DNA of 6,571 nucleotides from a virus (taxonomy: Duplodnaviria > Heunggongvirae > Uroviricota > Caudoviricetes): positions 1-6,571 of the IMG/VR virus record IMGVR_UViG_3300012089_000069; one strand, given 5' to 3'. Positions 2,248 to 6,571 of this stretch are shown here, in pieces; within the stretch, counting starts at the first letter, position 1; each line of letters begins with the position of its first letter. A program made the position numbers and the translations under genes. The notes under the pieces were generated by a model. The model was not told the origin of the DNA. It ran no database searches and was given only the letters and a program-made list of their open reading frames with translations.

Positions 2248-2263
2248 CCGCCCGAAAGGGCGG
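2248..2263 (+). promoter_or_regulatory. GC-rich stem-loop (CCGCCC-GAAA-GGGCGG) immediately upstream of the RBS of the Q-like gene
   Basis: Perfect 6-bp GC stem with a GNRA-type loop. No U-tract follows, so it is not a canonical intrinsic terminator. GGAG at 2265-2268 and ATG at 2275 follow directly. Confidence 0.3.
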
Positions 2264-2274
2264 TGGAGATAATA

Positions 2275-2796
2275 ATGGGAATAACTAAAGAACGATTGTT
2301 GGAAATAGCAAACCTTAGTGATTGGGCATTAAGTGATGAGAGAATTGTTTCTCCTCATGCTTATGAGTCAGTTACAAGTATAGAAATAACAACAATGGCT
2401 AGAATGCTGCTTGGTTATTTCAAAATAGAAAATAAAAAACAGATGGATAGTAATGTTGATATATGTGAGATTTTAGACGATTGGGGGGCTTGGGTTGTGG
2501 CTGGTAATAGTTCTATTGATTGGCAGGAAATAGCTGATAAATATAAAAATGTTGTTCCTCATGGTAAAAAATCACGTCGTCAGTGCAGCAATGATGAAGG
2601 GCGAATTATTGACATTAGTATCCTTATGTTAGAAAGATATAAGCAACAAGAATATGAGTTAATTGTTGCTCATTTCGTGATTGGTTTATCTCTTCGTGCT
2701 ATTGCAAAGCAACAAGGATGTTCAGATGGAACAATTCGTAAAAGATTGCAAAAAGCCTTAGGTTTTTTGACTGGATATATAGCAATTACCAGTTAA
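2275..2796 (+). CDS. Q-family late-gene antiterminator-like protein (phage 21/82-type Q; QuuD-like) with sigma-70 region-4-like C-terminal HTH
   Basis: ATG at 2275 with GGAG 6 nt upstream. The protein has a WGAW motif, SRRQCSNDEG, and a C-terminal GLSLRAIAKQQGCSDGTIRKRLQKALGFL. These match my recollection of E. coli DLP12 QuuD (ERWGAW ... SRPQCCDDD ... CSDGYIGKRLQKAEG). An alternative internal start at 2443 (MDSNVDICEILDDWGAW) would give a QuuD-length protein. The gene is AT-rich compared with the flanking phage genes. Confidence 0.65.
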   Translation: MGITKERLLEIANLSDWALSDERIVSPHAYESVTSIEITTMARMLLGYFKIENKKQMDSNVDICEILDDWGAWVVAGNSSIDWQEIADKYKNVVPHGKKSRRQCSNDEGRIIDISILMLERYKQQEYELIVAHFVIGLSLRAIAKQQGCSDGTIRKRLQKALGFLTGYIAITS

Positions 2797-3434
2797 GAGT
2801 CAGCGGTTTTTTTACCAGTGTAATGGTATAAGGATACTCCCATGTGTCTTACATGATATGGAAGCGCTGTTGCTGGATGCTTTGTGATACTCTTAAAGCG
2901 GAGGGGAGAGCCTTCCGCTTCAATTTCTGCGTCCGAAACGGTCGTAGAGAAAAATTCTTTCCATTCATTGAATTTTACTGCTGATTTGTCAGACTTTATA
3001 TAAATTAGAATTCCTCCATGATCGTCACGTGACGTACCCGTGCCGTAACGTTCGGTTAGCTGAATCCAGCCATTATGAATAGATTTGGGGCCTCTCCATA
3101 ATTTTGCTTCACCGATCCATTCGAATTTTCCGAATTGATGTTTAACTAATAAATCAACGTGACCGCCATGTTGAGTATCATGTTCAACATCATAAAACCT
3201 ACCTTTCAGGAAATTTTTGATCGACGCTGTTAGCTCGTCCTCTCCCCACTTAGCATCTTGATAGAAGTGTTTGTCATTTTCTAAATTCTGAATAGCGTCG
3301 TCTAAATCTTCATAGAGTTGCTTTACAAAAATATTTTTGTCTGCAGCTAATTTTCTTTGAACCATTCCCCTAAATTCAGGATCCATTCTAATTAATGATT
3401 GAAGGTCTGCAGTACAGATGTTTACATCACTCAT
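2793..3434 (-). CDS. Third gene of the minus-strand operon: putative PD-(D/E)xK / Mrr-like restriction-endonuclease-fold nuclease, 213 aa
   Basis: Likely start is the ATG at 3434-3432 (MSDVNIC...), which overlaps the upstream stop as ATGAGTGA. The track's longer N-terminus has no RBS and lies inside the upstream gene. Motif GGHVDLLV-x10-EWIGEAK (D94, E109, K111) fits D...(D/E)xK. The stop codon shares 2 nt with the stop of the convergent Q-like gene. Confidence 0.6.
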   Translation of the reverse strand: MSDVNICTADLQSLIRMDPEFRGMVQRKLAADKNIFVKQLYEDLDDAIQNLENDKHFYQDAKWGEDELTASIKNFLKGRFYDVEHDTQHGGHVDLLVKHQFGKFEWIGEAKLWRGPKSIHNGWIQLTERYGTGTSRDDHGGILIYIKSDKSAVKFNEWKEFFSTTVSDAEIEAEGSPLRFKSITKHPATALPYHVRHMGVSLYHYTGKKTADS

Positions 3435-3855
3435 GCAGACTCTCCAAAAGACTCGAAGGAGTAAAGTATGGATAAAGATACTGGCTAAAATTATCAACCA
3501 ATTCGCCAGTTTCTGGATGGTAAAAACTTCCTGTGTCTAAAGCATAGGAAATAAGATCATCTTCAACTGGTATTGGTTCTTCCGTTAAATTATCAATGTA
3601 TTGAAAATGCATATCCAATAGATGTGCTTTATAGCTAGATAAATAATCAGTTGCTTTTATTAGCAGGATATAGTCATCTTTCGTATCAGTTAGATAGGTT
3701 AAACCATTGATAAGGGTTTTGTATGTAAAGTGATTGATATTTTTAGCATCTTTACTAACCAGAAAAAGAAAAAGATCACGACACACACTGCGAACAGGAT
3801 CATTAAAATCCTGCTCTATTTGCGTGATAATGTCGTGATATATACTCTTTTTCAT
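3427..3855 (-). CDS. Second gene of the minus-strand operon: small acidic protein of unknown function, 142 aa
   Basis: ATG at 3855-3853 overlaps the stop of the upstream gene (ATGA). The protein is D/E-rich with no recognisable motif. AT-rich codon usage matches its neighbours. Confidence 0.6.
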   Translation of the reverse strand: MKKSIYHDIITQIEQDFNDPVRSVCRDLFLFLVSKDAKNINHFTYKTLINGLTYLTDTKDDYILLIKATDYLSSYKAHLLDMHFQYIDNLTEEPIPVEDDLISYALDTGSFYHPETGELVDNFSQYLYPYFTPSSLLESLHE

Positions 3856-4943
3856 TTATGGCCTGATGATCTCGCTCTTCTTTTCTCTTCACAGGACTTA
3901 ACAGAATCCAATATTTTTTCAACAATAAATATAATCGAATCAATGTTGTTACAGTTCTTCGCAATTGCTTCATGCAACCTAATTCTAGGATTATCAAGCA
4001 TTGTCCTTTTTCCTGGTAATATTAACTCTACTGATAAAATATGTGAAGAACTTTGTGGTAAATCCCAAATTTTTCCCAACTTAAACTTTGTCAATATTGG
4101 GCTTGCGGACTCTCCACTATGATGGTAAACATCTTGACGCAAACACTTTTGACTTGGTTTGAGTTTTAAAGAACTTGTATTGCCATCTGAGGTGATAAAA
4201 GATACATGAGAAATTCTGCCATCTACTTTTTCGTAAAGATCTTGTATTGAACCAAATAATTCAAGAGGATTGTTTAAAATAACGCCAGCTTCTTTTTTTA
4301 TAAATTTAGCCACAAGGTATTGTTGAGGCTGTGATTCACTTCTTGGAAGGATAGATAAATCAATCGTAAGAATTAATATTTTTTCTGCAGGCATTAGCAT
4401 GATGGTATTAAAGCATTGCGTGACTTGGCGTGTTTTGCATTTTATTTCTCCACCATTAGCACGTAATTCCATACCCGCATCGCTAAGATGTGTTGGGTCA
4501 AGCTCTATCACTTCAGTGTAATACGCTTTGGATAAAAAAACAGCAGTGTCAATTTGTTTATCACGAATGATATCTTGACGTAGTTCAGCAAAATGCAGCT
4601 CAGTATCAGCAACTAACAGCTCCTCTCTGGATAAAGGAGTTGGGTATTTTTCTGAGAAGGGGCTATTGTCCTTTTTCTGATTTGTGAAAATTGTTTGTAA
4701 TTTTGCTACGTCTTCATCGGTGATTCTATAAATAGAAAGTAATCGATTCCCGCTAAAAATTAAACCTTTCCAGAAATCGTCGATTCTGTCTTTTAGGTCG
4801 GGATTATGCTGAACTACACTATTTACACGTTCAATAAAAAGGGGTAATCCTTGGGCCGTTACACCCAGTGATGAACCAAGAAGCTTACGGGTGTTGCGCC
4901 AGCCAAAGCGTGAATTGATGTTTTTTACTGTTTGCTCAAGCAT
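3852..4943 (-). CDS. :: First gene of the minus-strand operon: 363-aa protein of unknown function, a candidate sensor or specificity component
   Basis: Long ORF. The probable start is ATG at 4943-4941 with AAGGAA 6 nt upstream; the track start at 4949 is a GTG two codons earlier. No Walker A, methyltransferase or obvious HEPN/TIR motif seen. The C-terminus is basic (KRRARSSGHK). Confidence 0.6.
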   Translation of the reverse strand: MLEQTVKNINSRFGWRNTRKLLGSSLGVTAQGLPLFIERVNSVVQHNPDLKDRIDDFWKGLIFSGNRLLSIYRITDEDVAKLQTIFTNQKKDNSPFSEKYPTPLSREELLVADTELHFAELRQDIIRDKQIDTAVFLSKAYYTEVIELDPTHLSDAGMELRANGGEIKCKTRQVTQCFNTIMLMPAEKILILTIDLSILPRSESQPQQYLVAKFIKKEAGVILNNPLELFGSIQDLYEKVDGRISHVSFITSDGNTSSLKLKPSQKCLRQDVYHHSGESASPILTKFKLGKIWDLPQSSSHILSVELILPGKRTMLDNPRIRLHEAIAKNCNNIDSIIFIVEKILDSVKSCEEKRRARSSGHK

Positions 4944-4949
4944 TAACAC

Positions 4950-5100
4950 TTCCTTAATTTTCCCTTAACAATTTAGGGTGCTAAACTTTTTTGCGCAGTT
5001 TACATAAAAAAATAGTGCGTACGCAAAAACTATCTAACATGATGAGCTTTAACCGGGAAATTTGTATATGTTGTGAGCATAAAGTTGGCTGAGAAATCTA
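4950..5100 (-). promoter_or_regulatory. Probable promoter/operator region of the three-gene operon, containing the perfect palindrome TGCGTACGCA (5016-5025)
   Basis: AT-rich non-coding DNA upstream of the first operon gene. Only weak sigma-70-like hexamers can be picked out by eye. The 10-bp palindrome is a candidate operator. Confidence 0.3.
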
Positions 5101-5289
5101 AAACGGGTAGAATGACTGCGGGTGCTTGAGGCTATCTGTCTCAGGCATGAACACCAAAAGGCAGATAGAGAAAAGCCCCAGTTAACATTACGCGTCCGGC
5201 AAGACGCTTAACATTAATCTGAGGCCATATCTATGCTCTACACACGTAGGTTAGCCTCTTACGTGCCGAAAGGCAAGGAGAAGCAGGCT

Positions 5290-5445
5290 ATGAAGCAGCA
5301 AAAGGCGATGCTAATCGCCCTGATCGTCATCTGTTTAACCGTCATAGTGACGGCACTGGTAACGAGGAAAGACCTCTGCGAGGTACGAATCCGAACCGGC
5401 CAGACGGAGGTCGCTGTCTTCACAGCTTACGAACCTGAGGAGTAA
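5290..5445 (+). CDS. hokD: Hok/Gef-family type I toxin (small membrane host-killing peptide), 51 aa
   Basis: Peptide MKQQKAMLIALIVICLTVIVTALVTRKDLCEVRIRTGQTEVAVFTAYEPEE carries the Hok signature (CLT...LVTRKDLCE...EVAVFTAYE). As I recall it, this matches E. coli HokD/RelF. AAGGAG at 5274-5279. The track's upstream in-frame ATG at 5233 is unlikely to be the true start. Confidence 0.85.
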   Translation: MKQQKAMLIALIVICLTVIVTALVTRKDLCEVRIRTGQTEVAVFTAYEPEE

Positions 5446-5885: not shown

Positions 5886-6571
5886 GTGCGGGTATTACTT
5901 CGACCTGTTCCGGTACCGGAACTTGGGCTGGTGGTGCTAAAACCGGGCCGTGAATCCATGCAGGTATTTCATAATCCTCGAGTTCTGGTGGAGCCGGAAC
6001 CGAAAAGCATGCGCGGTCTGCCGTCCGGAGTCGTTCCTGCCGTTCGCCAGCCATTGGCGGAGGATAAATCATTACTGCCATTTTTCAGCGATGAGCGGGT
6101 GATTCGTGCTGCTGGTGGTGCTGGTGCACTGTCTGACTGGCTGTTACGCCACATTAAATCCTGCCAGTGGCCTCATGGTGACTACCATCACAGCGAAACC
6201 GTCATACATCGTTACGGTACCGGTGCAATGGTGTTGTGTTGGCACTGCGACAACCAGCTGCGTGACCAGACTTCCGAATCACTCGGGCAGCTTGCTCACC
6301 AAAATTTGTCAGCATGGATGATTGACGTCATACGCCATGCAATGAATGGCACGCAGGAGCGGGAATTATCGCTGGCTGAATTATCCTGGTGGGCAACCAT
6401 AAATAACGTAGCGGACGCACTACCGGAGACGGTATTACGTCGTTCTCTGGGGTTACGTGCGGAAAAAATCCGCTCGGTGTACCGCGAAAGCGACATCATA
6501 CCGGGAGAGCAGACAGCCACCAGCATCCTGAAACAGCGCACAAAAAATCTTGCGCCGCTGCCTCACGCCCA
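5886..6571 (+). CDS. Cys/His-rich prophage protein, YdfU/DUF968-like (partial; 3' end outside window)
   Basis: Frame is open from GTG at 5886 to the window end (228 codons, no stop). Contains a CQWPHGDYHHSETVIHRYGTGAMVLCWHCDN metal-binding-like cluster. Synteny after hok matches Qin prophage. Not in the ORF track because it has no stop inside the window. Confidence 0.6.
   Translation, partial: MRVLLRPVPVPELGLVVLKPGRESMQVFHNPRVLVEPEPKSMRGLPSGVVPAVRQPLAEDKSLLPFFSDERVIRAAGGAGALSDWLLRHIKSCQWPHGDYHHSETVIHRYGTGAMVLCWHCDNQLRDQTSESLGQLAHQNLSAWMIDVIRHAMNGTQERELSLAELSWWATINNVADALPETVLRRSLGLRAEKIRSVYRESDIIPGEQTATSILKQRTKNLAPLPHA

Follow-up and report, generated by a model that had tools for sequence, protein, structure and literature searches.

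The window analysed here, a 6,571-nucleotide (nt) stretch of viral DNA (IMG/VR virus record IMGVR_UViG_3300012089_000069; Caudoviricetes), carries three adjacent minus-strand genes, which we term A, B and C. Judged by homology, this trio (positions 2793-4943), together with the upstream DNA to about position 5106, appears to be a prophage-carried anti-phage defence operon and a divergent orthologue of DS-21, a system whose protective effect has been measured (PMC13092281). The window is 99.9% identical to Escherichia coli O127:H6 strain E2348/69, an enteropathogenic E. coli (EPEC) strain, where it belongs to a lambdoid prophage beside ompW. The parts of the operon, by position in the window, are as follows.

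3852-4943, minus strand: gene A, 363 amino acids (aa), isoelectric point (pI) 8.8.
3427-3855, minus strand: gene B, 142 aa, pI 4.6.
2793-3434, minus strand: gene C, 213 aa, an N-terminal helical extension followed by a predicted PD-(D/E)xK nuclease.
4944-5106, minus strand: non-coding region upstream of gene A, which moves with the cargo and has its boundary against E. coli strain 504838 at 5106/5107.

DS-21 (working identifier TOXO) is a three-gene prophage operon from an ECOR strain that was described in the DefensePredictor study (Science 2026; PMC13092281). It lies at positions 7805-9963 of NZ_QOXJ01000032.1 and encodes the proteins WP_001532221.1, WP_021552536.1 and WP_001557682.1 (PMC13092281). 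We found it in the supplementary tables of PMC13092281 by means of peptides that are conserved in proteins C and A. BLASTP aligned protein A with DS-21 protein 1 at 51% identity over 359 aa (E = 1e-140), protein B with DS-21 protein 2 at 54% over 136 aa (E = 1e-47) and protein C with DS-21 protein 3 at 60% over 208 aa (E = 2e-92). The homology is full length, the gene order A-B-C is the same and the protein sizes correspond (365, 140 and 211 aa in DS-21; 363, 142 and 213 aa in the window). The exact DS-21 proteins are encoded in E. coli lambdoid loci between the antiterminator Q gene and the holin gene, tail-to-tail with the Q gene. In contrast, the window trio lies between an additional Q-family gene and hok/sok, and it represents a distinct and rarer lineage, being present in 14 of 5426 complete E. 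coli genomes.

The protective activity of DS-21 was assayed in MG1655 from a low-copy plasmid, under the predicted native promoter, against a panel of 24 phages (PMC13092281). The operon is marked there as defensive (TRUE) and replicated (TRUE); it lowers plating of Bas1 by 4.48 log (about 30,000-fold) and of Bas11 by 2.0 log (100-fold), and four more phages are flagged, namely Bas3, Bas9, Bas67 and T3 (PMC13092281). We read the flag on these four phages as smaller plaques. The original prediction, made from the DNA letters of the window, had presented the trio as a candidate undescribed defence or abortive-infection module that could not be placed in any named system. The word "undescribed" has to be withdrawn, as the DS-21 family has already been cloned, tested and numbered (PMC13092281). 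The defensive role is backed by experiment on the homologous DS-21, whereas the abortive mode, the fate of the infected cell, and the predicted parts of A as sensor and B as partner are still inferred. Given this full-length, collinear match to DS-21, the finding was correct but not new, and the window trio is a new, divergent member of a recently validated family.

The difficulty of placing the trio was a fair reading of the older catalogues (2020-2023; PADLOC, Pfam and NCBIfam), which contain no real match. Pfam, NCBIfam and PADLOC-DB v2 (2023) returned none for A, B or C and nothing usable for their distant homologues. Within PADLOC-DB v2, which includes 3HP, PD-lambda, PD-T4, PD-T7 and the PDC candidates, A and B matched 0 families and C matched only PDC-S54 (E = 0.0016, over 60 residues). 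The PHROGs collection places the three proteins in families of unknown function (phrog_12777, phrog_11490 and phrog_9664), and the literature, searched by accession and by PHROG number, yielded nothing on the trio. Two papers that were also checked, one on Tai tail interference and one on domain-centric discovery, proved unrelated to it.

The gene structure agrees with the prediction that three minus-strand open reading frames (ORFs) are joined by start/stop overlaps. The stop codon of A and the start codon of B share the 4 nt ATGA (3855-3852 in minus-strand reading), and the stop of B and the start of C share the 8 nt ATGAGTGA (3434-3427). Gene A starts with the ATG at 4943, preceded by AAGGAAG, and RefSeq likewise gives a protein of 363 aa; a GTG at 4949 was considered as an alternative start and rejected, as it would leave no spacing to the Shine-Dalgarno sequence AAGGAAG. 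RefSeq annotates a shorter gene C (197 aa, starting at 3386), with which the 8-nt overlap would vanish. The longer version is favoured by its residues 1-16, which have counterparts at the N-termini of homologues in many genera, and a B/C overlap of 4 or 8 nt is also found in the gene calls at other loci. The A/B junction is less fixed, with a 4-nt overlap in the window, a 20-nt overlap in Shewanella and a gap of 9-10 nt in other relatives. The guanine-plus-cytosine (GC) content between about 2250 and 5100 is 0.32-0.42, compared with 0.50-0.60 in the flanks; for the trio itself it is 0.37, against 0.47 and 0.52 on either side. The block is therefore AT-richer than its surroundings, as had been noticed, and it takes in the neighbouring Q-family gene as well. 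Taken as a whole, the evidence supports a module of three co-transcribed genes carried as cargo by a lambdoid prophage, and in this respect the original prediction was borne out.

Conservation of the three genes as a unit extends far beyond E. coli. Among 41 loci on viral contigs that were reached via C, the order A-B-C is present wherever the upstream DNA is available, and the trio also occurs in Shewanella, in Photobacterium and in a GC-rich metagenomic prophage. The family of A comprises 499 clusters at E <= 1e-3, all of about 340-390 aa. For a more distant comparison, 24 loci were fetched via relatives of A that are ~20% identical to the window protein; they come from Alpha- and Gammaproteobacteria, one cyanobacterium and one metagenome-assembled genome (MAG) labelled Flavobacteriaceae. 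The complete A-B-C order is present in 22 of the 24. One of the two exceptions is cut at a contig end, and the other keeps B and C with an insertion between A and B. At this last locus (L069, an alphaproteobacterial MAG), ~2.6 kb at positions 6072-8683, with a 540-aa ORF, separates A from B and C, and this stretch is probably an insertion that split the operon. The recurrence of the three genes in one order at all loci with enough flanking DNA is not due to chance, and the trio is an obligate three-gene unit across proteobacterial classes and a cyanobacterium.

The GC content of the trio lies below that of its flanks even in GC-rich hosts. Outside the slot next to Q, the trio lies between the gene of a CI-like repressor and a tail gene (Phage_GPD), between the genes for terminase and portal, or, in Shewanella, with resolvase and DUF6538 genes as its flanks; we count this variety of unrelated contexts as mobility of the trio. 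In a tblastn search of sequenced isolated phages with protein A, no carrier was found, the only match being a weak and partial one in Acinetobacter. Compared with the STEC308 allele, which is 97.8% identical, the trio shows nine synonymous differences and one non-synonymous difference, a pattern that indicates purifying selection.

The assignment of the third protein to the PD-(D/E)xK type holds. The structure model of C has a predicted local distance difference test score (pLDDT) of 92.8, and its fold matches are BstYI, BamHI, OkrAI, BglII, McrC, HamA and NucC. A comparison of 29 diverse homologues showed no variation in any of them at E65, D66, H85, D94, E109, K111, Q125 or Y130, and E65/D94/E109/K111/Q125 constitute the predicted catalytic set. 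By modelled fold and residues, C is thus predicted to be a small BamHI/BstYI-like PD-(D/E)xK nuclease. HHpred on DS-21 protein 3 points the same way, with DpnII-MboI-type PDDEXK at 0.96 and LmuA_effector_PDDEXK at 94.7% (PMC13092281). In Pfam the C family gives weak matches to PDDEXK_9 only, in 3 of 39 members. Rab-type matches of C, obtained in a profile search of PDB sequences, were dismissed as chance.

Protein A, in which the original prediction could recognize no motif, can now be described by its fold. The AlphaFold2 model (pLDDT 83.8; predicted TM-score, pTM, 0.81) has an N-terminal helical region with a HeH/SAP-like motif, a pair of RdgC-like alpha/beta domains and a long C-terminal helix. 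Its best structural matches are RdgC, Iml3, CENP-L and Chl4, and a Foldseek search against viral models placed phage RdgC proteins at the top (E = 9e-7, probability 1.0, with a low TM-score of 0.37). A profile search of PDB sequences gave no match for A. The model thus suggests that A has an RdgC-like fold, as reported for lambda RexA, with a likeness at the level of the fold only. A shares the two-domain fold of RdgC (Pfam PF04381), from which it differs in its additional N-terminal helical domain and long C-terminal helix; a sequence relationship between the two was not found. A further difference lies in the conservation peak of A, residues 253-294 (about 4062-4187 in the window), in which C267, L268, D271, Y273, H274 and G277 are invariant and which takes in a loop left unplaced by the model. 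This loop, residues 267-282, is the sole segment of the model with pLDDT below 50. That it is conserved and yet unplaced suggests that it is a candidate contact loop, for a partner protein or for DNA.

The middle protein had been described as acidic, and this property is general, with acidity kept in 15 of 15 diverse B homologues (pI 4.4-5.9). The conserved motifs YLS..LLDM.F, HP.TGE.V and PYF.P lie in the C-terminal half of B, and at the loci examined the protein is encoded between A and C. HHpred on DS-21 gave a winged helix-turn-helix (0.8) and DUF5939 (0.94) for protein 2 and a weak HeH/SAP match (0.64) for protein 1 (PMC13092281). HMMER detected DUF5939 in none of 27 B homologues, so the link to DUF5939 is remote at best. 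A profile search of PDB sequences with B returned chance matches only.

Apart from DS-21, the known systems that come closest to the trio are Rex exclusion and systems with PD-(D/E)xK nucleases. RexA, the component of Rex exclusion that carries the fold, is reported to have an RdgC/Iml3/Chl4 fold, and both RexA and RdgC bind DNA non-specifically (PMC11077077). Lambda RexA/RexB is prophage-encoded like the trio, and the fold of RexA belongs to the set matched by A; in contrast to RexAB, there is no RexB match or membrane family among A, B and C, and PADLOC revealed no RexA sequence homology in A (0 families). Protein C has its catalytic fold and motif in common with Lamassu LmuA, Hachiman HamA, CBASS NucC, BamHI, BstYI and BglII. 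However, no SMC-like LmuB partner was found, A and B showed neither an ATPase nor an SMC domain, and the likeness to Lamassu is limited to the nuclease core, which resembles LmuA in the HHpred analysis of PMC13092281. The trio likewise differs from Hachiman in having no HamB helicase and from CBASS in having no cyclic-nucleotide signalling. Relative to what was already published, the present analysis adds the link of A to the RdgC/RexA fold, the BamHI/BstYI-like nature of C with its invariant residue set, the consistent acidity of B, the strict coupling of the three genes across phyla and the Q-adjacent slot with swappable cargo.

The explanation that we favour, and hold to be probable, is that the trio is a DS-21-family defence operon in which A detects, B restrains or links and C cuts. 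According to this model, A, a basic protein, would bind DNA as a dimer, using both the HeH/SAP-like motif and the RdgC-like body, and would act as the sensor of a DNA form or nucleoprotein born of infection, such as free ends or replication and recombination intermediates. B, kept at a fixed ratio to C through the conserved start/stop overlap, would either silence the nuclease or couple it to A. Once licensed, C would cleave DNA and halt phage growth. A more specific version, which we put forward as a tentative possibility, is that A, with its RdgC/RexA fold, clamps DNA, recognizes some structural feature in the DNA of an infecting phage (free ends, or recombination or replication intermediates) and licenses C via the acidic B. 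If this were true, evolution would have used the RexA-type fold widely for sensing infection and joined it to quite different effectors, namely a membrane protein for Rex and a nuclease for the trio, and DS-21-type operons would provide a tractable soluble model for what Rex-like sensors detect.

Several observations weigh against the defence model or its details. Protection was measured on DS-21 alone, with which the window operon shares just 51-60% identity. A plating drop of at least 10-fold was recorded for only two of the 24 phages challenged with DS-21, Bas1 and Bas11, which are T1-like Drexlerviridae siphophages of the BASEL collection. The main text of PMC13092281 does not mention DS-21 and gives no mechanism for it. 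In the text and tables consulted, no mutants of DS-21 were found, which leaves it unproven that each of the genes, or nuclease activity, is required. Pfam gave no match for A or for 48 of its relatives, and membership of A in the RdgC family (Pfam PF04381) was considered and rejected, as hhalign of the A family against the RdgC alignment reached a probability of 23% over 40 columns; A is therefore not filed in that family. As A lacks a sequence match to the RdgC family, DNA binding by A is argued from the fold and from the weak HeH match (0.64). The predicted structures cover A and C but not B. Finally, no consensus sigma-70 promoter was found upstream of the operon on the trio strand.

Much of the same evidence could be accommodated by a restriction-like complex that cuts incoming phage DNA directly, with neither infection sensing nor cell death. 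Such a complex could dispense with a methylase if C cut only DNA presented to it by A, such as DNA that is modified, has linear ends or adopts a particular structure. The nearest folds to C are indeed those of the type II enzymes BstYI, BamHI, OkrAI and BglII, together with McrC, A is plausible as a DNA-recognition subunit, and the effect of DS-21 on Bas1 was a large drop in plating that goes beyond small plaques. However, there is no methyltransferase in the trio or its immediate flanks, as there would be in a type II restriction-modification system, and no NTPase motor in or beside the operon; moreover, the phage range of DS-21 is narrow, and specificity for a sequence or a modification is without support. 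We therefore regard direct restriction as unlikely, though the strongest of the three competing explanations.

It is also conceivable that the chief function of the operon is to stabilize the prophage as a toxin-antitoxin or addiction module, with C as toxin, B as antitoxin and A as regulator, and that protection is a side effect. The gene order would suit this arrangement, since the gene for a small acidic protein directly precedes that for a nuclease and the two are coupled in translation, their overlap of 4-8 nt being kept in many lineages; in addition, hok/sok adjoins. Against it, A is conserved as strictly as B and C (22 of 24 distant loci), which would be unusual for a simple two-part module, the scans of Pfam, NCBIfam and PADLOC gave no matches to toxin-antitoxin families, and the homologue DS-21 has a defence phenotype, all of which make an addiction module improbable. 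The worst fit to the evidence is the idea of an accessory for recombination or replication during the prophage's own lytic growth, in which an RdgC-like RecA modulator and a nuclease would act outside defence. True RdgC is common in phages (387 phage records match E. coli RdgC), but the operon lies on the strand opposite to that of the adjoining Q gene and of the phage genes around it, some loci have no recognizable phage genes nearby, no sequenced isolated phage in the collection carries the trio, and DS-21 expressed alone protects a phage-free host. We consider this last explanation very improbable. The defence model thus retained raises the question of how a defence system that has neither methylase nor NTPase controls a restriction-like nuclease, and the window trio offers a second, divergent E. 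coli allele (E2348/69) for a comparison of phage range.

Two features bound the cargo slot in the window, and both lie outside the system.

2263-2796, plus strand: small, AT-rich gene of the antiterminator Q family, left edge of the slot.
5120-5445, plus strand: hok/sok type I toxin-antitoxin, right edge of the slot.

The original prediction had placed the trio between nin-like genes and hok. The hok side was right, since Rfam identifies a sok RNA at 5120-5295 (117 bits) and Pfam a hokD coding sequence at 5290-5445 (HOK_GEF, 3e-23; also hokD in RefSeq), whereas the left neighbour is a Q-family antiterminator gene rather than a nin gene (Pfam Phage_antitermQ, 3e-31, plus sigma-70 region 4). This gene is convergent with C, and the two stop codons overlap tail-to-tail by 4 nt. 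The same tail-to-tail arrangement of the trio with a Q-family gene was present at every enterobacterial lambdoid locus examined, and among its common relatives in E. coli and Salmonella the trio occupies the gap from Q to the holin gene. In E. coli strain 504838 (locus L002) the flanks are as in the window but the cargo differs, consisting of a DUF6731 protein and a 159-aa protein; the Q-family gene beside this other cargo is kept at 82.6% identity. The exchange has its boundaries at window positions 2736 and 5106/5107, so that the trio and the ~160 bp upstream of it form an exchangeable cassette within a defined slot.

The region upstream of A (4944-5106) presumably holds the promoter; no convincing terminator was found for the operon. 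The region contains a conserved element, TTTTTGCGTACGC, at 5029-5017 on the minus strand, which contains the 10-bp palindrome TGCGTACGCA at 5025-5016. Across loci the consensus of the element is TTTTTGCG(T/G)AC(C)GC (5016-5029 in the window), and in relatives the palindrome can read TGCGGaCCGCA. All enterobacterial lambdoid loci have exactly one copy of the element, upstream of A and on the same strand as the trio, at ~60-105 nt from gene A in the representatives checked, and it is conserved although the trio proteins are only 50-60% identical. Because the element also precedes the unrelated cargo of strain 504838 (L002, about 6066-6080), it belongs to the slot and not to the trio. Perhaps it is an operator or target site of the Q protein.

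Several further observations concern the same prophage and its relatives. The alternative DUF6731 and 159-aa cargo, at 4603-6012 of L002 (corresponding to the slot at 2736-5106 of the window), is found in other E. coli strains. Its 159-aa protein has weak PADLOC matches to RexB (E = 0.0015) and to PDC-M18B, and the pair may be a Rex-like two-gene defence system. A sensor shared by the two cargos was considered, but hhalign of A against the DUF6731 protein gave a probability of 0.1%, and the idea of a common sensor was therefore dropped. The prophage has two antiterminator Q genes, the small one beside the trio on the plus strand (2263-2796) and a second one (17111-17800 of locus L001) just before the tRNA and lysis region. 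The small Q gene encodes a sigma-70 region 4-like helix-turn-helix, and between alleles it changes much faster than the trio, with 14.5 synonymous and 23.5 non-synonymous differences compared with 9 and 1. Further to the left, an 84-aa ORF on the plus strand (1584-1838; phrog_4030) is intact in the window, whereas RefSeq lists it for E2348/69 as a pseudogene interrupted by an internal stop. In strain 504838 other genes (DUF4406 and DUF4752) take the place of the block 1589-2198, which points to a second small variable region. Next to it, the DUF977 protein encoded at 1165-1587 on the plus strand matches PHROG 142, annotated as "Ren-like exclusion protein" (E = 1e-46), and its gene may be another superinfection-exclusion gene of the same prophage.

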